NCBI GenBank assembly: GCA_048939995.1
Contig: JBHLOY010000008.1
Location: 96,001 to 160,000 of the forward strand
Direction of reading: 5' to 3'
Length of the DNA: 64,000 bases
Origin: Promethearchaeota archaeon
GTDB taxonomy: Archaea; Asgardarchaeota; Lokiarchaeia; Sigyniarchaeales; SOKP01
How positions within the stretch are numbered: the stretch's first letter is position 1; each line of letters starts with the position of its first letter. This document shows positions 26,409 to 37,003 of the stretch, one piece after another. The notes beneath the pieces were generated by a model. That model was not told where the DNA came from and made no database searches. It worked only from the letters and a program-made list of their open reading frames with translations. The translations under genes and the position numbers were made by a program.

Positions 26409-26888
26409 TTATGATTTAGGGATAATAATGGAATGATCTTCCTTTATCCTGTCTAAAACGAGCTGGGTTTTTATTTCTTCTACTTCTGGAAGATTACGGA
26501 GATTCTCAATCAGTTTCATAGAATCTTCATGATCAAGACATTTAGCCATTATAAAGATTGGATAATCTCCTGTGATAACATAGGCGTATTTAATTTTATC
26601 CATCCGTTCAATTTCCTCTTTAATTTGCTGAAGTGGTTTCCTTGAATTCACTCGAAGGGACGCAATTACCATCTCCCGATAGTTTAATTTTCGGCAGTCT
26701 ATAATCGCCATGTACTTTTTAATAAAAGTCTCTTCTAATTTCTGAATACGAGCCCTTATTGCCGTCTGGCTCATATTAGTCTGTTCTGCAATTTCTCGAA
26801 TTGTTATTTTACCATCTTCTTGTAATAACTCTAAAATTTGTTTATCAATCGCATCAAGCGTTCCAGGGGTAGAATTTGCTATTACCAT
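26409..26888 (-). CDS. Lrp/AsnC transcriptional regulator
   Basis: LDAIDKQILELLQEDGK, HTH, ITGDY. Confidence 0.92.
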   Translation of the reverse strand: MVIANSTPGTLDAIDKQILELLQEDGKITIREIAEQTNMSQTAIRARIQKLEETFIKKYMAIIDCRKLNYREMVIASLRVNSRKPLQQIKEEIERMDKIKYAYVITGDYPIFIMAKCLDHEDSMKLIENLRNLPEVEEIKTQLVLDRIKEDHSIIIPKS

Positions 26889-27384: not shown

Positions 27385-27759
27385 ATGAGAATGTCAACAT
27401 ATACTTTCATGATATCTACTGAGCCGTATAAGTTCGAAGCAGTTGATACTTTGCTTAATTTATGTAGAGCAGTGTTACAAAAAGGACATAATATTAAGGG
27501 AATATTTTTTTACGGAAGCGGTGTCTATAATATTAAAAAAGATATTGAAACTGGTATTACTGTTCGTAATTTACCAGCACGTTTGGAAGAATTTATTAAG
27601 GAGAATCAGATTCCAGTCGCTGGGTGTACAACATGGATTGGACTTTGTGGATTAAATGAGCATTGTTTTATTGATGGTGCAAAAGAAGAAGGATTGGGTG
27701 AATTGTCCAATTGGACAGCAGAATCAGATAAACTAATAATGTTTGGAACAGGGGGATAA
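27385..27759 (+). CDS. dsrE: DsrE/TusD-like sulfurtransferase (copy 1)
   Basis: EPY, IFFYGSGVYN, conserved Cys in AGCTTW, GLGEL. Confidence 0.85.
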   Translation: MRMSTYTFMISTEPYKFEAVDTLLNLCRAVLQKGHNIKGIFFYGSGVYNIKKDIETGITVRNLPARLEEFIKENQIPVAGCTTWIGLCGLNEHCFIDGAKEEGLGELSNWTAESDKLIMFGTGG

Positions 27760-27764
27760 GGAAA

Positions 27765-28133
27765 ATGATCAAATCGGTTGTAATAGTAAGTGACCAATCT
27801 CCAGTCGGAAAAAACTCTGCCATTGAAGCTTTAAGGCTAGGGTCAGGATTTAGGGGATTAGGGGAGGAGATTGACTGCCAGGTGGTACTTATGGGTGATG
27901 CGGTTTACTTATTGAGTAAACACGCAGATCCCTCTAAAATTGGAGTTGATTCTTTTGATGAACCAATGGAAATGGCGGAATTGTCTGATTTAGAAATATC
28001 AGTACTTGACAGCGCTATAAGTGATGCTGGATTAACAAAAGAAGATCTTGTGGAATTTGAGGGTTTAAAGATAATCGATCTCAAAACTCTTGCAGAAATA
28101 ATCGAAAATGCCGATACTACATTTAGATTCTAA
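27765..28133 (+). CDS. dsrF: DsrF/TusC-like protein (copy 1)
   Basis: SPVGKNSAIEALRL, LMGDAVYLL; lies between dsrE and dsrH. Confidence 0.82.
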   Translation: MIKSVVIVSDQSPVGKNSAIEALRLGSGFRGLGEEIDCQVVLMGDAVYLLSKHADPSKIGVDSFDEPMEMAELSDLEISVLDSAISDAGLTKEDLVEFEGLKIIDLKTLAEIIENADTTFRF

Positions 28134-28147
28134 GGTGGTGAATAAAA

Positions 28148-28489
28148 GTGGAAAAAGTTATTGATATGGTATATCTTTTTGGATTTAGTCCTAGATTTGG
28201 GAATGAATTAAACCGATTAGTACCAATTCTAAAAAGCCAGATAGAAAAAGGAAAGAAAATAAGCATAGTGTTCATTCATGATGGCGTTATTGGTACTAGT
28301 TCAAAAGGAAAAATTACAGAATCAGTGAATATACTTAGAGGGTTAATGCTTAAGAAATATGTTATGACTCCTGACTTAGCCGCAAGAGGAATTCCATTAG
28401 AGCATATTCAAGAAGATTTACAGCCCATAGATTATATGGAGCTTGTTGATATAATGGAGAATAGTAATAAAATTATCTCATGGATGTAA
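28148..28489 (+). CDS. dsrH: DsrH/TusB-like protein (copy 1)
   Basis: FIHDGV, DLAARGI, DYMELVD, IISW. Confidence 0.88.
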   Translation: MEKVIDMVYLFGFSPRFGNELNRLVPILKSQIEKGKKISIVFIHDGVIGTSSKGKITESVNILRGLMLKKYVMTPDLAARGIPLEHIQEDLQPIDYMELVDIMENSNKIISWM

Positions 28490-28616
28490 TTTAAGAAAAA
28501 ATAGATAAAGTAAATTCAAAAATATTTTTTAAAACAAATAAATCATGGTTAACAAATAGTTAACTCACATAATTAACAAAATCAAAACAAACAAATTTAA
28601 AAAAAAGGTGTAAATT

Positions 28617-29033
28617 TTGGTAGAAAAAATGAACTTTATTGTAAAAGACAAATCTTTTGAAAAGTTTATGATGATGACAATCTTGGGAACCACTGGAAGT
28701 GCAATGGATGTGGAAATGAATTTCTTTTTCACTTTCTGGGGATTAAACCTTTTAAAGAAGAAGTTTAAGCCCAAAGTAGCCGGAATGCCAACACCTATGA
28801 AAGGTATGGCAGCTGGAATGTTCAGGAAACGATTAAAGAAATTTGGTATGGAAGATCCATGGGCCTTGATCAAAGAAGCTATTGACGAGGGAAAAATGAA
28901 ACTATATCCATGTCAAATGACAATGGATTTAATGAACATTAAAAGAGAAGAAATGTGGGATTTTGTAGAAGATCCTATCGGTGCAGCTGGTTTCATAGAA
29001 ATGGCTGATGGTGGCCAAGTAGTCTCATTATAA
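28617..29033 (+). CDS. DsrE2/DrsE-type sulfur-transfer protein
   Basis: FFTFWGLNLL, YPCQMTMDLM, GAAGF. Confidence 0.88.
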   Translation: MVEKMNFIVKDKSFEKFMMMTILGTTGSAMDVEMNFFFTFWGLNLLKKKFKPKVAGMPTPMKGMAAGMFRKRLKKFGMEDPWALIKEAIDEGKMKLYPCQMTMDLMNIKREEMWDFVEDPIGAAGFIEMADGGQVVSL

Positions 29034-29073: not shown

Positions 29074-29634
29074 ATGTCTGATGTGGAAGAAGAACAACAT
29101 CGGGAATTTATGATTGATGAGGATTTTGACTCAGAGTTTTTTAGAAATATTGAACGTAGATCAAATATATTAAAATGTATCCAATGCGGCACTTGTACTG
29201 CCAGTTGTGAAAGCGGAAGATGGACCGCATTAAAAACACGTTCAATTATCAGGAAAGTTGTGCTAGGAGATTTATCGGTATTAAAGGATCCTGATATTTG
29301 GTTATGCACAACATGTTATCAGTGTTATGAACGATGCCCACGAGATGTAAGGCCTACAGATGTAATTATGGAATTACGAAATTATGCTACTAAGTTAGGA
29401 AACATTTCTCCTAATCATAGAGCGGTTGTTGGATACTTGAAACAATTTGGGCATGCAGTACCCATAAATGATGAGATAAGGAAGCGAAGAGTTGAATTAG
29501 GTTTAGAAGAATTACCTCCTACTGCATTCAAGTTTAAGCAAGAGGGGGATGATAAAGATTTAAAAAATATTGAAGAAAAAATGTTTGATTTACCTCCTGT
29601 TAAGGAGGAAAAAAAGAAAAAAGAGGAGGCATAA
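29074..29634 (+). CDS. hdrC: Heterodisulfide reductase subunit C
   Basis: CIQCGTCTASC, IWLCTTCYQCYERCPR, GHAVP. Confidence 0.95.
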   Translation: MSDVEEEQHREFMIDEDFDSEFFRNIERRSNILKCIQCGTCTASCESGRWTALKTRSIIRKVVLGDLSVLKDPDIWLCTTCYQCYERCPRDVRPTDVIMELRNYATKLGNISPNHRAVVGYLKQFGHAVPINDEIRKRRVELGLEELPPTAFKFKQEGDDKDLKNIEEKMFDLPPVKEEKKKKEEA

Positions 29635-29637
29635 AAA

Positions 29638-30552
29638 GTGGTAAAAGAAAAAACTTTTGCGTTTTTCCTTGGTTGTATCATGCCCAACCGTTATCCTGCG
29701 ATTGAAAAGTCAACCAAATTTGTTATGGAAAAGTTAGGATACGAGATTTTAGACATGGAAAGAGCAACATGTTGTCCTGCACCTGGTGTATTTCGCTCAT
29801 TTAACAAATTTGATTGGATGGTTGCAGCAGCTAGAAATCTTTGTATCGCTGAAAAAATGGATGCTGATATTTTAACAGTATGTAATGGTTGTTTTGGTAC
29901 ACTTCAAGAAGTAAATAAACATCTTAAAGAAAATGAAGATCATAGAGATAAGGTAAATGAGAAGTTGAAAGAAATTGGAGATTATCAGTTTCAAGGAAAA
30001 ATCAACGTCCGACATGTAGCAGAAGTTCTGGGATATGAGGTTGGACCTTGGGGGATTGAAGATTATATTGTAAGGAAACTGAATGCTAAGGCGGCTGTTC
30101 ATTATGGATGCCACTTTTTGAAACCAACAAGGATTCGAGAAATTGAAAGTTCTGAAGGACCAACAATTATCGAAGAATTCGTGGAAGTCTTAGGAATACA
30201 ATCAGTTAGATTTAAAGAACAACTAACGTGCTGTGGCGCAGGAGGAGGTGTAAAAGCATATTCAGGTGATGCAAGTATGACAATTTTTGCGGAAAAAATG
30301 AAGAATATTGATGAAGTGAAGCCAGATTTTATATTAGATATATGTCCCTTCTGTCATTTACAGTTCGAATCGGGACAGGATTACTTAAACAAAAACAAGG
30401 CATGTAATTATGATTACCCTGTAATCCACCTTTCTCAATTAGTTGCATATTGTATGGGCATGGATCAAGAATTTGTGGGTTTACAATACCAATTAATGGG
30501 TCGGGATTATATTTTTGGGGAAGTTGAAGCGAAAAGAGAGGAGGTAGCGTAA
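29638..30552 (+). CDS. hdrB: Heterodisulfide reductase subunit B
   Basis: FLGC, CCPAPG, CNGC, HYGCH, CCGAGGG, CPFCHLQF. Confidence 0.96.
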   Translation: MVKEKTFAFFLGCIMPNRYPAIEKSTKFVMEKLGYEILDMERATCCPAPGVFRSFNKFDWMVAAARNLCIAEKMDADILTVCNGCFGTLQEVNKHLKENEDHRDKVNEKLKEIGDYQFQGKINVRHVAEVLGYEVGPWGIEDYIVRKLNAKAAVHYGCHFLKPTRIREIESSEGPTIIEEFVEVLGIQSVRFKEQLTCCGAGGGVKAYSGDASMTIFAEKMKNIDEVKPDFILDICPFCHLQFESGQDYLNKNKACNYDYPVIHLSQLVAYCMGMDQEFVGLQYQLMGRDYIFGEVEAKREEVA

Positions 30553-32583
30553 ATGACTGTCAAAGAAGAAAAAGTAAAAGAGACAAATGACACTCAAGAG
30601 TCATTAGAGCATGAGGAGAGTGAACCTAGAATTGGAGTGTTTGTTTGTCACTGTGGGCATAATATAGCTGGTACTGTTGATGTTGCTGAAGTTGCAGAAT
30701 ATGCAAAAAGTTTACCGAATGTAGTGAAAGCAGAACATTATATGTTTATGTGTAGTAAACCAGGCGTCCAAATGGTTAAGGATTCAATTAAAGAATTAGG
30801 AGTAGATAGAACTGTGGTTGCCTCATGTTCAAAAAATCAACACGGAAGAACCTTTGCTAATGCCATCCAAGAGATGGGTTTAAACAAGCATCGTCATCAA
30901 CAAGTAAATATTAGAGAATTTGATAGTTGGGTGCATCAAAAAGAAAAGGATAAAGCAACTAAAAAAGCAGAAAGATTAATTGAAGCAGGGGTCAATAGAG
31001 CACGTAAATTAGAAGATGTAGAAACTCGGAGAATTCCTACAACCAAAGCTGCATTAGTTATTGGTGCAGGTATTGCCGGTCTTCGAGCAGCCCACGATCT
31101 AGCAGAATTAGGGATTCCAGTTTATCTGGTTGAGCGAGAATCAACTATAGGAGGACATATGACCCAATTAAACAAGACCTTTCCAACCTTAGAATGTCCC
31201 CAGTGTTCCATATCTCCACTTACTAATGGAGTTGCGAATCATCCATTAATCGAACTTTATACAAATGCTCAAATTAAAGAAGTAGAAGGTTCAATGGGTA
31301 ATTTTGAAGTGGAAATTGAAATCAAACCACGATATGTTAAAGATAATTGTACTTCGTGCGGGGAATGTGCAATTCATTGCCCTGTAGAAGTTCCCAGTGA
31401 ATGGGATAAAGGCATGTCTATAAGAAAGGCTATTTATAAAGCATATCCTCAAGCTATCCCAGCCACATATGTGAGAGACAAGAAAAATTGTATCGAGTGT
31501 AATACATGTATTAATGTTTGTCCAGTTCAAGCTGTTGATTTTTCAATGGAACCAGAAACAAAAAGATTTAAAATAGGCTCTATAGTTGTAGCTACTGGGT
31601 ATGATGAATACGATCCTTCCGAAATTGAAGCTTATCATTATAAACAAGAGGGTTATGAAAATGTTATAACCCAACTGCAGGTAGAACGGATGCTTGCTCC
31701 TGGCTCTTTAACTAACAGTCAAGTACTAAGACCTTCTGACGCTAAAATCCCAAAAAATGTAGTGATGATTCAATGCGTTGGAAGTAGAAATGATCAGGTA
31801 GGGAATATATATTGCACAGGAGTTTGTTGTAAATTTGCGATTAAAAATGCTCGAATTATTAAGGAAATGTATCCTAATTCTAATGTTACCATATGTTATA
31901 TAGATGTAAGAACTCCTGGGTTAAATTTTGAGGAATTATATAAATCCTCCCAGGAAGTGGGAGTACGATTCATAAGGGGAAGACCTTCTGAAATTCTTCG
32001 AGATCCTATTTCTGGAGAATTAAGGGTAATAGTTGAAGATACATTAAGTCAAACACCATTGAAGTTAAAAGCAGATTTAGTAGTATTATCTGCAGCCATG
32101 GTTCCACCAGAAGGAATCGGTCCTTTAGGTTCAAAATTGCATGTTCTTCGATCTAAAGAAGGGTTTTTAAAAGAATTTCATATTAAGATGAATCCCACCT
32201 TAAGCAGTAAAGGTGGTATTTTTTTAGCTGGAGCAATTCAAGGTCCAAAAGACATTTCAGAGTCTGTAGCTCATGCTGGAAATGCTGCTGCATTAGCAGC
32301 TGCTCCCTTAGTAAAAGGATATATTGAAAAAGAAATGTTAATCCCATCCATAGATTTAGACTTATGTGTTAAATGCGGGCTTTGTAAAACTGTATGTGCT
32401 CCTGCTGCGATTGATATAAATGAGGATGGAATCCCTAAGATTAATGAGATAGCATGTAAATCATGTGGTATGTGTATGCCTGCATGTCCAACAGGGGCTA
32501 TTCAATTGTTAAATTTTAGTGATGAGCAACTATTAGATGAAATTGTTGCTGTATCTGGAGGTGTTATATGCGAAAATGAGTGA
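30553..32583 (+). CDS. hdrA: Heterodisulfide reductase subunit A
   Basis: VCHCGHNI, IGAGIAG, KTFPTLECPQC, inserted and C-terminal ferredoxins, QCVGSR, CTGVCC. Confidence 0.96.
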   Translation: MTVKEEKVKETNDTQESLEHEESEPRIGVFVCHCGHNIAGTVDVAEVAEYAKSLPNVVKAEHYMFMCSKPGVQMVKDSIKELGVDRTVVASCSKNQHGRTFANAIQEMGLNKHRHQQVNIREFDSWVHQKEKDKATKKAERLIEAGVNRARKLEDVETRRIPTTKAALVIGAGIAGLRAAHDLAELGIPVYLVERESTIGGHMTQLNKTFPTLECPQCSISPLTNGVANHPLIELYTNAQIKEVEGSMGNFEVEIEIKPRYVKDNCTSCGECAIHCPVEVPSEWDKGMSIRKAIYKAYPQAIPATYVRDKKNCIECNTCINVCPVQAVDFSMEPETKRFKIGSIVVATGYDEYDPSEIEAYHYKQEGYENVITQLQVERMLAPGSLTNSQVLRPSDAKIPKNVVMIQCVGSRNDQVGNIYCTGVCCKFAIKNARIIKEMYPNSNVTICYIDVRTPGLNFEELYKSSQEVGVRFIRGRPSEILRDPISGELRVIVEDTLSQTPLKLKADLVVLSAAMVPPEGIGPLGSKLHVLRSKEGFLKEFHIKMNPTLSSKGGIFLAGAIQGPKDISESVAHAGNAAALAAAPLVKGYIEKEMLIPSIDLDLCVKCGLCKTVCAPAAIDINEDGIPKINEIACKSCGMCMPACPTGAIQLLNFSDEQLLDEIVAVSGGVICENE

Positions 32584-33028
32584 ATGTGAATATATCAAGC
32601 CCGAAGTGCTCGAGAAGATGGAAAATATTGTAGTGTTTATGTGTAATGAGTGTGGCCAAGGTTCTGCAAATACAGCTGGAGTAGCTCGAATGGCATATAA
32701 TCCAGCTATACGTATAGTTCGAGTCCAATGTACGGGTCAAGTAGGACCGATCCAAATTATGGATGCATTGAGTAATGGAGCTGACGCAGTTGCATGTGTC
32801 GGATGCTGTCTAGGGGCATGCCATTTCTTCAATGGTAATATTCTTTCAATGCACCGAATTAAGCTTATGAAGAAGTTATTCAAAGAATTAGGCTACAGTG
32901 ACCAAATTATTAACCAATACACCTCACGAGCTGCAGAAGGTGAAACTGCAGTAGGTGATTTTGAAGATATTGTAGAGAGATTAGCAACTGCAATTAGAGA
33001 GGAGGCGACATTCAAAGATGGATGTTAA
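32576..33028 (+). CDS. mvhD: MvhD-type [2Fe-2S] adaptor; start reassigned to ATG 32576
   Basis: FMCNEC, RVQCTG, GC.LGACHF; GGAGGTG upstream and overlap with the hdrA stop. Confidence 0.9.
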   Translation: MSECEYIKPEVLEKMENIVVFMCNECGQGSANTAGVARMAYNPAIRIVRVQCTGQVGPIQIMDALSNGADAVACVGCCLGACHFFNGNILSMHRIKLMKKLFKELGYSDQIINQYTSRAAEGETAVGDFEDIVERLATAIREEATFKDGC

Positions 33029-34253
33029 AGTTTTTCAATTTAATGGATGCAATAAATGCTTTAATGAAACTATTCTATTAAAAGCAGATTCAAACCATAA
33101 AATTGGGTTTGTATCTAATCCTAGGAATTGGAAAGAGGAGAAAATTGATGTTTCTGTAATTACGGGTTATTTATTACCAGAGGATAAAGAGACTTTAGAT
33201 AAAATTATAAGAAATTCAACAAAAATTATTGCATATGGAGATTGTAGCGCTACTGGTGGAGTTTTTGCCTTATCCAATCAACGGGGTCATAAAGTAACAC
33301 CTTTAAGAAAGATGCAGGAAGGTATCTTGAATGTGTATGGTTGTTTGGGTGAAATAGAAGAACTAGAAGCATTAATTATAGGTAAAGATTTACCGAAACT
33401 AAATAATTTATGTATTGTATGTGGAAGAAAGAAAACGTGTGATTATTTAGAAGAAGTCAAGCGTCAAATAGAATTAGATGACGAAGAGAAATGTTTTAAT
33501 GATCTTGGATACTTATGTAATGGATTTATAGCAAAAGAATGTAAAGAACGATGTATCGATTACAATGCGCCCTGTCGTGGTTGCAAACCTATAATTGAAC
33601 GTTCAGGAATCAGAATGCTGGGAATGTTTGGAACTTTAATGGGAAATATTGAAGTCTCTACAGAGCATTCTGAAAAGGGAGCTACAGATAAACTAGCAGA
33701 TAATGATGACGATGTTACGGCAAGTTTACCTGATATCGTTGGTAATTTCTTTAGATTCACGTTATCTACCTCTGGTTTGCCTAAAGGGAGAATCAACTCT
33801 TCAGGAAGCCTATTAGAAGATGTATTTACAGGGAGATTAATAGAAGAATTACCTTTAATTACGGGTTTATTGGGGGGAGATCGCTCGATTTCACTAACGC
33901 TTAAAGTCCTAGAGACCTATGAAGAAGGTAATAATATAGAAGTAAGTGAGACTACAAAACAATATCGAAAGGAATTATTAGAGTTAGAAAATGAATTACT
34001 AACAACAATAGAATCCAAAGATCCAAAAAAATATAAAGAGGTGACTGATAAGATTCGAAAAATTGCTGGTAATATGAATTTATCTAATCTCTACTATGGG
34101 GGATTTAAATCACAAATTAATGAGAATGATAATTTTGAGGACTATAAAACCCATGTTTTTGATGTGGTTGAAGGTACTTATAAAAATGGTTCGATTGAGC
34201 TTACAATTGATTCCATAGGTATTGTAAAAGAAATAAAAATTAAAGAGGGTTAA
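33018..34253 (+). CDS. MvhG-like Fe-S small subunit fused to a degenerate NiFe large-subunit-like segment
   Basis: GCNKC, GDCSATGG, GC, CIVC, GYLCNG, CKERC...PCRGC; C-terminal LEDVFTGRLIEELPLIT. Confidence 0.75.
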   Translation: MDVKVFQFNGCNKCFNETILLKADSNHKIGFVSNPRNWKEEKIDVSVITGYLLPEDKETLDKIIRNSTKIIAYGDCSATGGVFALSNQRGHKVTPLRKMQEGILNVYGCLGEIEELEALIIGKDLPKLNNLCIVCGRKKTCDYLEEVKRQIELDDEEKCFNDLGYLCNGFIAKECKERCIDYNAPCRGCKPIIERSGIRMLGMFGTLMGNIEVSTEHSEKGATDKLADNDDDVTASLPDIVGNFFRFTLSTSGLPKGRINSSGSLLEDVFTGRLIEELPLITGLLGGDRSISLTLKVLETYEEGNNIEVSETTKQYRKELLELENELLTTIESKDPKKYKEVTDKIRKIAGNMNLSNLYYGGFKSQINENDNFEDYKTHVFDVVEGTYKNGSIELTIDSIGIVKEIKIKEG

Positions 34254-34255
34254 AC

Positions 34256-36724
34256 ATGAGTTTTGAATTATTAAAAGTTGAAATTGTAGACGCTGGCCTT
34301 TGTCAAGGATGCGGCTTATGTGCTGGATCGTGTAAGCATATTGAGATGGAAGTAAAGCGTCCATCCCTTAAAGACTACTGTATTTTAGAGAGAGATGGTC
34401 AAGATTGTGGAAAGTGTTATCAGAACTGCCCTCAAGTTATTCAAAAGAAGTTTGAGGAAAAAGAGCCGTTAGCTTTATATTCTTTAAGGAGTAAGAATCT
34501 TGATGTTCTATCTAAAGCTGCTAGTGGAGGCTTTATCACTACTTTTGTTAAGGAACTTTTAGAGAACCAGACACTTAAGAAAATAGTAATGGTACATGAA
34601 GAGGATGAAAAACCAATTGCGGAAATTGTTTCAAATCCTGAAGAAGCGGTTAAAAAAGCAGGAGTAGTTTATGGTAGATCTGGAGTGTTAGAGCGGTTAG
34701 TAGAAATTACAGGCGAATCTTTTGATCAAATAGGTATTGTTGGTGTGCCCTGTGAAATGCGTGGAGCTGCTGAAATAGAAGAGGAAATGAAACGGGACAT
34801 TCTAAAAATTGGATTGTTTTGTAATTCACAAATTCGTACCGAAGAAACAGATAAAGGCTTAGTATGCTCTCCATGCTGTAATGGCTGTCCTTCTGGAGTA
34901 AATGCTCAGGGATATATTTCATTAATACGTCAGGGCAAATATCAAGATGCTGTAAATCTAATTAGAGAAAACAATCCGCTACCATCAATATGTGGTCGCA
35001 TTTGTACTAATGAATGTGAATATGGATGTACTTTAATCGGAGACGACCATCCCGTCGCAATTCGAGAATTAAAGAAGTTTGTAACGGAGTGGGAGATCGA
35101 AAAAGCAAAAAAAGAAGTAAAAAATATACCGAAATTGAAGAAGAATGCTAAAAAAGTGGCAATTATTGGATCTGGTCCCGCAGGTTTAACTGCGGCTTAT
35201 TATTTGAGAAGAATGGGATATGTAGCAACTATTTTCGAAAAAACCGATCAGACAGGAGGGATGCTACGATTTGGAGTACCCCAATTTCGATTACCTAACT
35301 ATGTCTTAGATTATGACGTTGAAAGGATAATAGAATCTGGAGTTAAAGTAGAACTTAATAAACCATTAGGACATGAAATGACCATTGAGGATTTGAAAAA
35401 TAGTGGTTTTGAGGCAATTTTTATAGCAACAGGTCAATATAAGCCTCGAACCTTGCATTTAGAAGGAGAAGAGCTTCCAAATGTATTTGTGGCAATCAGT
35501 TTCTTAATGGATAGAAAATACCGTTATTGGGAAAATAAAGAAGAATTTAAAGGAAAAACTATAGGGATAATTGGAGGTGGCCCTGTTGCTGTTGATGTTG
35601 CTCAAACTGCATTAAGGTTAGGTGCAGAAAAAATTCATTTAGTAGATATAATGTCAGAAGAACAACTAGAATTAGTTTTAAAGGATATTCCTGAAAATGA
35701 AATGGCTTTCATGCAATATCACTTCAAAACATCCACTTCAAAAATTACACAGAATGATGATGGCAAATTAGTTTTGAATTGTTATAACATAGAATGGGGA
35801 AAACCAGATGAGAATGGAAGGAGACCATTAAATAAAGTACAACAATCCGAATTTGAAATTCCTATTGATAATATCGTAATAGCAGTTGGTCAAGCCGTTG
35901 ATTTTGACCAGATAGATGTTGCTACTAATAACAAGTTAGAAAAAGAACGCAATAAAATCAAGGTAAATGAAATTACTTTTGAAACAAATATTCCAGGAGT
36001 TTTTGCTGGAGGAGACATCATTAACAATTCCAAAGCTGTAGCTATTGCCGCAATAGCACACGGAAAAGAAGCAGCAATTTCAATAGACAAGTACTTGAAA
36101 GGAGAAAATTTAGTAGATGGACGATATAAGAGAGTAAATTCATTTTTCACTGGACCTAATAGACCTCCTAAAGATTACTCTTTGAAACCAGAATCCTTAG
36201 AGGAAGCAACTGAAGAGATAAATTGGTCTTTTGAAGAGATAGATAAGATGTTTAATGAAGATATGGCTTTACAAGAGGCACGTAGATGTTTAAGTTGTAA
36301 TCATTTCTGTTCCCACTGTCAAGATTTCCCAGCAATTTATTCAGATTTAACTGCAGGGGAAATCGGTTCACAAAAGGGATATACTACCGTTGTAGTATGG
36401 ACTGAACGTGGGAAAGAACTTGTTGAACAGGCAATTCAAAAAGGATTGTTTGAACAAGGTAAAGTGAATGAACAAGAACTCAAAACTGCTATCAATTTGA
36501 AATCAAAGAGAGAACTTATGATTTTTAAAAAGACTCCACGACAATATGTATTGGATTATATTACACTTCAAGGGCCTAGTACAATAAATGATATAGCAAA
36601 AAATACTGGAATCGAGGCAAAAAAAGTTAGATATGAAGCACTTCGTTTAGTCCAGTTAATGGAATTAGAAATGAAAGCAGATCAGGATATGGATGAACCA
36701 GTATTTTCAATTATGTGTGATTAA
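34256..36724 (+). CDS. Ferredoxin-FrhB protein with inserted GltD/SudA-type flavoprotein and C-terminal wHTH
   Basis: CQGCGLC/CGKCYQNCP; FrhB SGG, GVPCE, IGLFC; then CCNGCP, CGRICTNECEYGC, GSGPAG, GGGP, FAGGD, EARRCLSC; then FrhB CSHCQD...SDLTAGEIGSQKGYTTVVVWTERG. Confidence 0.88.
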   Translation: MSFELLKVEIVDAGLCQGCGLCAGSCKHIEMEVKRPSLKDYCILERDGQDCGKCYQNCPQVIQKKFEEKEPLALYSLRSKNLDVLSKAASGGFITTFVKELLENQTLKKIVMVHEEDEKPIAEIVSNPEEAVKKAGVVYGRSGVLERLVEITGESFDQIGIVGVPCEMRGAAEIEEEMKRDILKIGLFCNSQIRTEETDKGLVCSPCCNGCPSGVNAQGYISLIRQGKYQDAVNLIRENNPLPSICGRICTNECEYGCTLIGDDHPVAIRELKKFVTEWEIEKAKKEVKNIPKLKKNAKKVAIIGSGPAGLTAAYYLRRMGYVATIFEKTDQTGGMLRFGVPQFRLPNYVLDYDVERIIESGVKVELNKPLGHEMTIEDLKNSGFEAIFIATGQYKPRTLHLEGEELPNVFVAISFLMDRKYRYWENKEEFKGKTIGIIGGGPVAVDVAQTALRLGAEKIHLVDIMSEEQLELVLKDIPENEMAFMQYHFKTSTSKITQNDDGKLVLNCYNIEWGKPDENGRRPLNKVQQSEFEIPIDNIVIAVGQAVDFDQIDVATNNKLEKERNKIKVNEITFETNIPGVFAGGDIINNSKAVAIAAIAHGKEAAISIDKYLKGENLVDGRYKRVNSFFTGPNRPPKDYSLKPESLEEATEEINWSFEEIDKMFNEDMALQEARRCLSCNHFCSHCQDFPAIYSDLTAGEIGSQKGYTTVVVWTERGKELVEQAIQKGLFEQGKVNEQELKTAINLKSKRELMIFKKTPRQYVLDYITLQGPSTINDIAKNTGIEAKKVRYEALRLVQLMELEMKADQDMDEPVFSIMCD

Positions 36725-36763: not shown

Positions 36764-37003
36764 ATGAAATTTGATCAAGAGTTAAATGTATGCGGGTTAG
36801 TATGTCCCGTTCCAGCGCTTAAGACAAAGAAGGAATTAATGAAAATGAGGCCTGGAGCAGTTTTAAAAGTAATCACTGACTACAAACCCGCATCTGAGAG
36901 TGTTCCTAGAGACTTAGCTAAACAAACTAAACACAAACATTTAGGAACCGAATTCATCGAAGATGAAGAACAATGGTGGATTTATTTTGAAGCTGTTAAA
37001 TAA
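36764..37003 (+). CDS. tusA: TusA-family sulfur carrier (copy 2)
   Basis: LNVCGLVCPVP, GAVLKVITD; AGGAG SD. Confidence 0.9.
   Translation: MKFDQELNVCGLVCPVPALKTKKELMKMRPGAVLKVITDYKPASESVPRDLAKQTKHKHLGTEFIEDEEQWWIYFEAVK

Follow-up and report, generated by a model that had tools for sequence, protein, structure and literature searches.

A large-subunit relic without a nickel site, fused to an MvhG-type small subunit in a lokiarchaeial heterodisulfide-reductase operon

The closest described relatives of the system reported here are the group 3c hydrogenase–heterodisulfide reductase (Hdr) complexes of methanogens, MvhAGD-HdrABC and Vhu-Hdr (5ODC, 9SW2), in which HdrABC and MvhD are joined to an MvhG-type small subunit with three [4Fe-4S] clusters, and in which the genes run mvhD, mvhG and then the large subunit. 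We analyzed 64,000 nucleotides of a Promethearchaeota archaeon of the Lokiarchaeia (GenBank assembly GCA_048939995.1, contig JBHLOY010000008.1, positions 96,001 to 160,000; hereafter the window, with positions counted from its first letter). Here the same components and the same order recur around a gene that we call mvhG* (33018..34253, + strand). By contrast with Mvh and Vhu, however, MvhG and the large subunit form one polypeptide, in which the latter has shrunk to ~150 amino acids (aa) and lacks the L1 and L5 cysteines and hence a Ni-Fe site. Next comes an FrhB-like gene, DsrE and TusA genes flank the operon, and most host lineages are non-methanogens. The assembly totals 3.75 Mb, and the names of homologues likewise assign it to the Asgard archaea (Lokiarchaeia/Promethearchaeota). 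The shortened large subunit, hereafter the relic, still superposes on MvhA (5odc_F) with a Z-score of 12.4.

A second close parallel is Elp-Hdr of Methanothermobacter marburgensis (ElpABC-HdrABC), which comprises a truncated FdhA, an FrhB-like F420H2 oxidizer and MvhD (PMC12350162). As in mvhG*, the catalytic subunit of the donor module is truncated and cofactor-free, the flavoprotein is of the FrhB/FdhB type and MvhD provides the link to HdrA (PMC12350162). A first-pass annotation, made by a model from the DNA letters, had proposed just such a parallel to Elp, starting from Mvh, and the composition of Elp-Hdr (PMC12350162) agrees with it: the operon in the window holds a truncated cofactor-less subunit, an FrhB/FdhB-type flavoprotein and MvhD, together with HdrABC, as an architectural analogy only. 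The origin of Elp is a formate dehydrogenase (FdhA lacking the molybdopterin domain), and ElpA is a separate polypeptide that is not homologous to the truncated subunit described here. Elp has also been demonstrated biochemically and structurally, whereas the mvhG* system is known here from sequence and models.

Two further comparisons are useful. NuoD, which is the 49-kDa complex I subunit, and MbsL, from the membrane-bound sulfane-sulfur reductase, belong to the same superfamily, have lost the nickel cysteines, are not hydrogenases and pair with a small-subunit homologue; both are among the fold matches of the relic (Z 9.8-11.4). However, they keep the full fold of ~370-590 aa, have gained a quinone or sulfur cavity and are group-4 related, membrane-bound and separate polypeptides, whereas about one third of the fold is left in mvhG*, fused to the small subunit. 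In FrhABG (group 3a; 6QGR, 4OMF), likewise, small and large subunits occur together with FrhB, and FrhA is the best match of the relic in both sequence and fold. Yet Frh works as an active Ni-Fe enzyme and has neither Hdr nor MvhD, and the small-subunit part of mvhG* is nearer to MvhG and VhuG than to FrhG. We found no description of the MvhG* fusion or of the nature of its tail in the literature searched, the paper on strain MK-D1 included, which is no proof that none exists.

The mvhG* gene is a single open frame of 411 aa plus stop, and its 321 close homologues are mostly 411-413 aa long. Residues 1-256 (33018..33785, + strand) form a complete MvhG-type [NiFe] small subunit, as judged by Pfam, homology to solved structures and small-subunit fold matches. 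PF01058 (Oxidored_q6), a flavodoxin-like N-domain, was found at E 4.7e-11 in a Pfam scan, and the best solved relatives were MvhG (5odc_E, E 2.3e-12) and VhuG (9sw2_E, E 2.5e-12). FrhG (E 0.03-0.4) and sulfhydrogenase delta were far weaker matches, which assigns the small subunit to group 3c, the Mvh/Vhu type. The alignment to MvhG and VhuG reaches query residue 255-256, equal to position 295 of 299 in 5odc_E. Because homology thus spans to the end of that chain, the ~155-aa tail is extra to a full-length small subunit. No catalytic large subunit lies beside this MvhG/VhuG-type protein in the window or at the six related mvhG* loci described below.

All 13 cysteines of the product fall within residues 11-189. 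Cys11/14/76/109 are kept and fit the proximal cluster, while Cys132/135/159/167/175/179/186/189 pair one to one with cysteines of 5odc_E and 9sw2_E and fit the medial and distal [4Fe-4S] clusters. These 12 residues are invariant or nearly so throughout the mvhG* family, and the small-subunit part retains ligands for three [4Fe-4S] clusters, which it is predicted to bind. At the proximal site, GCPP has become GCLG in Lokiarchaeia and is kept in distant family members. The first-pass annotation had read MvhG-like cluster motifs followed by a final ~147 aa without cysteine. Both observations stood, with all 12 cluster ligands intact (E ~2e-12 to MvhG/VhuG) and none of the 13 cysteines in residues 265-411 (147 aa), which begin at base 33810, the first base of codon 265 (LLEDVF...), and are followed by a stop codon whose last base is 34253.

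The tail proper (residues 257-411; 33786..34250, + strand) is a reduced, cysteine-free core of a [NiFe] large subunit, made of five helices and a small beta-sheet, as identified by hmmsearch, hhalign, an AlphaFold model, VIA-align, Foldseek and the ESM Atlas. As a single sequence it matched no Pfam or NCBIfam family, gave no PF00374 match at E up to 0.1-1, and returned a chance match only in a phmmer search of the PDB. A phmmer search of 1.84 billion representatives recovered 21 sequences (its own family, short fragments and two long multi-stretch matches), none of them a large subunit. By contrast, a family profile built from 20 diverse tails, without structural information, reached large subunits. 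When all PDB sequences were searched with hmmsearch, the seven best matches and 12 of the 19 listed were [NiFe] large subunits, headed by FrhA (E 9.7e-5) and including 9sfi_g (418 aa, deposited as F420-reducing hydrogenase alpha subunit), sulfhydrogenase alpha, MvhA and the HydABCSL large subunit. Each of these aligns at its residues ~40-105, the L1 stretch.

Profile-profile comparison gave the same result. Aligned by hhalign to 21 Asgard large subunits, including both from the source genome, the tail scored 87% probability (E 4e-6) and its first 75 residues alone 91% (E 1e-6), in a register that is ungapped from an RGFE-like start to past the L1 motif. In this register E267/G272/R273/E277/P279/I281/G287 align to E41/G46/K47/D51/P53/I55/G61 of the source genome's genuine large subunit. 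Run over 400 genomes of the phylum, the tail profile also matched genuine Asgard large subunits (E ~1e-5); the one inspected, of 445 aa, carries RICAICSASH and DPCISCSAH and adjoins a small subunit. The likeness to NiFe large subunits first noticed in the bare letters is therefore recovered by both kinds of profile search. In precomputed Pfam annotation, PF28234 is recorded on one family member (P0014) and PF27537 (HoxH) on some large subunits; neither was seen in local Pfam scans.

The nickel ligands have been lost from this tail. Gap-free hhalign alignment onto RICGLC of the same genome's large subunit shows that LLGGDR (residues 284-289; 33867..33884, + strand) stands, in degenerate form, where large subunits have their nickel-binding L1 motif RxCGxC, as the first-pass annotation had read it. 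G286 and R289 take the positions of the two nickel cysteines. The two-cysteine RxCGxC that marks a catalytic large subunit is absent from the tail. Homologues lack it as well: the first cysteine position is occupied by Gly in 128, Tyr in 5 and Phe in 1 of the 134 sequences covering that column (139 aligned), the second by His in 78, Lys in 38, Arg in 10 and Asn, Leu, Gln or Ser in others, and neither is ever Cys. In 129 of 139 family members, the relic domain contains no cysteine at all. The L5 motif DPCxxCxxH/R is missing too, as the first-pass annotation had said of the C-terminal DPCxxC half: no cysteine follows residue 189, the protein stops just after the post-L4 hairpin, and superposition halts at residue 402 of 437 in FrhA. 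The most divergent members, of the Methermicoccaceae type (403 aa), still read SR(V/I)(F/Y)G at L1 and GCPP in the small subunit, and from these motifs they look closer to the ancestral state.

A conserved loop, IRKIAGNMNLSNLYYGGF (residues 346-363; 34053..34106, + strand), lies at the place of the L2 loop (GGxxxHP...GG) in a colinear structural superposition, and G351, L355, S356 and G362 within it are invariant in the family. Its sequence match to GGxxxHPxxxxxGG was not significant (0.2 bits in hmmsearch; E 0.3 in hhalign), and two registers compete. The loop follows L1 after ~60 aa, vs. ~95 aa in real large subunits, so the earlier impression that the motif spacing matches holds for the first (L1) block and fails for the second motif. 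Overall, the tail is homologous to the [NiFe] large-subunit superfamily but has no nickel site.

The predicted structure supports the same origin. The AlphaFold model of the tail (predicted local distance difference test score, pLDDT, 91; predicted template modeling score, pTM, 0.86) consists of the five helices and small sheet mentioned above. In an exhaustive VIA-align comparison with 48,161 PDB representatives, the 15 top chains were all large subunits or homologues from complex I, membrane-bound hydrogenase or membrane-bound sulfane-sulfur reductase, NuoD included (Z 9.8-13.7). These aligned over 145-156 of 157 residues, 14 of them at 2.2-3.3 Å and 6cfw_L at 5.5 Å. The best match (Z 13.7) covered 148 of 157 residues at 2.4 Å, while the next match after the top 15 was an unrelated bundle at Z 5.2. 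Foldseek also ranked [NiFe] large subunits first, with weak E-values (0.06-1), and the ESM Atlas returned the relic's own cluster and then large-subunit clusters (template modeling score, 0.57-0.79). Three tests independent of one another, by sequence profile, by profile against profile and by fold, thus speak for a large-subunit origin. The lack of any such similarity in profile or structure, which would have refuted the first-pass reading, was not what they showed.

The superposition is colinear over FrhA 40-402 and MvhA 38-398. In the model, the relic appears not as a simple N-terminal half but as a large-subunit core from which the opening 40 residues, the bulk of the middle and the DPCxxC-bearing C-terminal helix are gone, and it would offer a naturally occurring minimal core of that fold. 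The first-pass annotation was accordingly right that this is a reduced large subunit, but it misjudged the extent, since what remains is a core trimmed from residues ~40 to ~400. The terminal beta-strands (residues 386-408; 34173..34241, + strand; modeled at 386-390, 393-397 and 402-408) would be the counterpart of the hairpin after the PRGxxxH (L4) motif, and locally hhalign matched them best to residues 369-382 of large subunits, at an E of 0.04 that is not significant by itself. We also considered these strands as a circularly permuted N-terminal hairpin and rejected the idea: the superposition ends at about residue 400 of FrhA and MvhA, the best local match lies at 369-382, and a single weak, negative-scoring HMMER stretch to FrhA 17-30, with nothing else, speaks in its favor.

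The relic is strongly conserved. Against twelve relatives, its ratio of nonsynonymous to synonymous substitution rates (dN/dS) was 0.06-0.11, and its mean identity was 76%, vs. 64% for the N-domain of the small subunit. Fourteen positions of the relic are invariant in the family alignment, and the fusion measures 411-421 aa in Asgard lineages, against 403 aa for members of the Methermicoccaceae type. The relic is therefore under strong purifying selection, a relic by origin and not a dead appendage; the word “vestigial,” used of it at first, suits its origin but not any decay. No stand-alone relic genes were found. The short representative P0127 is a fragment whose frame runs upstream into MvhG sequence, and at P0138 a called gene overlaps its start.

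The surrounding operon runs, all on the + strand, from hdrC (29074-29634; Pfam Fer4 dicluster) through hdrB (29638-30552; CCG), hdrA (30553-32583; HdrA-type FAD/Fer4, FAD being flavin adenine dinucleotide) and mvhD (32537-33028; FlpD; 11-nt overlap with mvhG*) to mvhG*. Beginning 2 nt past the end of mvhG* is a gene for an 822-aa FrhB-like flavoprotein (34256..36724, + strand) in which PF04422 and PF04432 are split by an inserted GltD/SudA-like module (PF14691 and PF07992). Upstream lie dsrE, dsrF-like, dsrH and DsrE2-like sulfur-carrier genes (27385..29033, + strand; Pfam DsrE, DsrH, DrsE_2) and a divergent Lrp/AsnC regulator (26409-26888, - strand; AsnC), and downstream lies tusA (36764-37003; TusA).

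The order hdrC-hdrB-hdrA-mvhD-mvhG*-frhB-like recurs in six related loci, with an FrhB-like protein of 819 aa with insert in MK-D1 (L091), about 345-385 aa on a Thorarchaeota contig (L096), and a plain version of 345 aa on a Thor-type contig (L022), 345 aa in an uncultured archaeon (L097), 356 aa in another Asgard family, from a second Asgard class (L027), and 389 aa on a Methermicoccaceae-labelled contig (L023). Genes of these operons overlap or abut in the window, MK-D1, Thorarchaeota, the second Asgard class and Methermicoccaceae. DsrE and/or TusA genes flank several of the six, including distant operons. No large-subunit gene was found in the operon, in the 64-kb window or in the six related loci. 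The fusion occurs in about 79 of 400 genomes of the phylum, closed genomes included. It is present in several Asgard classes and in Methermicoccaceae, a methanogen family, as well as in the cultured strains Promethearchaeum syntrophicum MK-D1 and Lokiarchaeum ossiferum.

In the MK-D1 paper, DSAG12_01145-01150, by gene order and annotation the orthologous operon, is reported at 265-318 reads per kilobase per million. These genes fit the MK-D1 operon above in order and content, which means that the gene was already known under the annotation MvhG and that its expression had been reported. Public runs gave weak RNA evidence: in one MK-D1 “RNA” library, which may be DNA, the locus lies on a 20-kb contig covered at flat depth. 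Two sediment metatranscriptomes contain contigs 90-95% similar over hdr, mvhG* and the mvhG*/frhB junction, which is no proof of transcription.

We consider it likely that mvhG* is a nickel-free, hydrogenase-derived electron-transfer subunit in an HdrABC-MvhD-MvhG*-FrhB-like complex fed by the flavoprotein. The heterodisulfide-reductase operon would then probably be fed by a flavoprotein and not by H2. The source genome has two real group-3 large subunits on other contigs, each beside its own small subunit. One of these loci is ordered mvhD, small subunit, large subunit, and this D-G-A order makes a read-through fusion of G and A the simplest origin. Such an mvhG-mvhA pair would have fused, after which the large subunit would have been trimmed to the helices around the former active site and the small sheet, with both L1 cysteines replaced. 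The relic would pack on the small-subunit face usually covered by a large subunit, where it could stabilize and shield the proximal cluster and shape a surface for a new partner. Electrons would enter through the FrhB-type flavoprotein, from F420H2 in the plain versions and from NAD(P)H oxidized via the GltD-like insert in the lokiarchaeial one. They would then pass over the iron-sulfur clusters to the [2Fe-2S] cluster of MvhD and on to HdrA's bifurcating FAD, to be split there between ferredoxin and a disulfide or persulfide at HdrBC. The analysis shows what the relic is, that it is conserved and under selection, that its nickel ligands are lost, that the cluster ligands are kept and that the operon recurs; the donor, acceptor, packing and electron route, and with them the role of MvhG* as a scaffold and electron wire, are inferred. 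A bolder version, about which we are doubtful, is a hydrogenase turned inside out: without the Ni-Fe site, the proximal cluster would become the point of electron entry from the FrhB-type flavoprotein, and the relic would offer the new docking surface.

Several observations weigh against this account. The sequence signal is limited to the first ~60 residues of the relic, the L2-like loop and terminal hairpin are assigned from the predicted structure alone, and the full-length model falls below pLDDT 50 at residues 134-253, the cluster-binding region. The gene is also patchy even within the genus (24 of 41 genomes). Moreover, in the Frh and Mvh structures FrhB and MvhD both normally dock at the distal end of the small subunit, near its distal cluster, and a linear wire would need a new docking geometry. 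In Elp-Hdr, the path solved by cryo-electron microscopy leads from the ElpB clusters to the N-terminal clusters of HdrA and then to the [2Fe-2S] cluster of ElpC, the MvhD protein, bypassing the truncated ElpA (PMC12350162). By analogy, MvhG* could be an off-path scaffold that holds a mobile arm or stores electrons while the FrhB-like protein passes them directly to HdrA and MvhD. We regard this as unlikely, though not negligible: near-invariance of the 12 cluster cysteines across lineages only 33-50% identical is more than a pure scaffold should need, and the translationally coupled D-G*-FrhB order fits direct contact.

Other explanations fared worse. MvhG* might still serve in a real MvhADG-HdrABC hydrogenase, of the kind that metabolic models of Asgard archaea assume, by recruiting a large subunit encoded elsewhere. 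The genome has two genuine large subunits that would allow this, and the MK-D1 paper speaks of MvhADG-HdrABC. This is very improbable, since beside each of the real large subunits a small subunit of its own is encoded (in the MK-D1 supplement, too, MvhA DSAG12_03951 is listed with MvhG DSAG12_03954), while the relic is homologous to exactly the part of the large subunit that would bind there, is strongly selected and is conserved with an FrhB-like gene instead of a large subunit. It seems slightly harder still to believe that chance or convergence explains the resemblance to large subunits, the tail being some unrelated bundle of helices plus a hairpin. Helical bundles do come easily to middling Z-scores, the Foldseek E-values were weak and the single-sequence searches found nothing. 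Against this, structure-free sequence profiles reach the same family at the same residues, and the 15 best VIA-align matches, over 145-156 of 157 residues, come from one superfamily before Z falls from 9.8 to 5.2. Least credible of all is a functionless, pseudogene-like appendage decaying after a recent fusion. Although every catalytic ligand is gone, the selection analysis contradicts decay (dN/dS 0.06-0.11), as do the 14 invariant positions, the conserved length and the spread over several Asgard classes and a methanogen family.

If the electron-transfer reading is true, mvhG* would join Elp as another, independently evolved example of how the catalytic subunit of a donor module is pared down to a scaffold. 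In Asgard genomes, HdrABC together with “Mvh” genes is routinely taken for an electron-confurcating hydrogenase, and this view feeds hydrogen-syntrophy scenarios for the origin of eukaryotes. Since mvhG* carries a dead large subunit, this Hdr operon cannot alone be a hydrogenase, and an F420H2 or NAD(P)H donor is indicated. Should the more doubtful inside-out version be true, many Loki- and Thorarchaeia would have, as an Hdr machine, this complex free of nickel instead of an MvhADG-HdrABC that evolves H2, changing how models of hydrogen-based Asgard syntrophy and eukaryogenesis read these genes. The presence of mvhG* in cultured strains makes the idea directly testable.

Some further features of the partner genes were noted. 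In all lineages the FrhB-like protein (for example at L022:10256-11290, L023:10199-11365 and L027:8379-9446(-)) has an N-terminal 2x[4Fe-4S] ferredoxin domain and, judged by eye, a putative C-terminal winged-helix domain. The ~450-aa GltD/SudA-like module is inserted only in the lokiarchaeial versions, including the 819-aa protein of MK-D1. A complex prediction for a Thor-type MvhG* (P0136) with its plain FrhB-like neighbor (P0265) scored 0.20 against a mark of 0.32, a result that leaves binding undecided. In Methermicoccaceae-labelled metagenome-assembled genomes (L023; P0132/P0134), the mvhG* operon, again with DsrE and TusA, keeps GCPP and the Arg of RxCGxC, and these copies point to either methanogen/Asgard transfer or an old common origin.

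The genuine hydrogenase loci of the source genome (G000) had peculiarities of their own. On contig C17 (L001; G000:C17:418910-422146), a Vhu-like large subunit of 434 aa (1384-2688) reads RICGICP and ends ...LPDPWIK without DPCxxC, and a small overlapping open reading frame (2676-2945) would encode FDCULSCAAH if TGA is read as selenocysteine. From its sequence, the pair resembles a VhuA/VhuU-type [NiFeSe] large subunit divided between two genes. The only large subunit of MK-D1 ends alike (...LPDPMVK; L098), and the small subunit ahead of the L001 large subunit is of double length (437 aa). The source genome has 14 FlpD matches in total. Several MvhD (FlpD) homologues contain two in-frame TGA codons (G000 contigs C8, C26, C17 and C21; MK-D1 C1:1865294-1865668), like VhuD of Methanococcus, which suggests that Lokiarchaeia may have MvhD paralogues with selenocysteine. 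On contig C13, the Mvh-type large subunit (L002, 1390-2691; RICGLC ... DPCISCATH) lies downstream of an MvhD fused to the ferredoxin-like domain of a longer protein. Its open frame offers no ATG, GTG or TTG start among the first 94 codons. Translation seems to begin at a non-canonical start codon, since a database entry that matches 99% of the L002 query at 100% identity begins 5 residues in.

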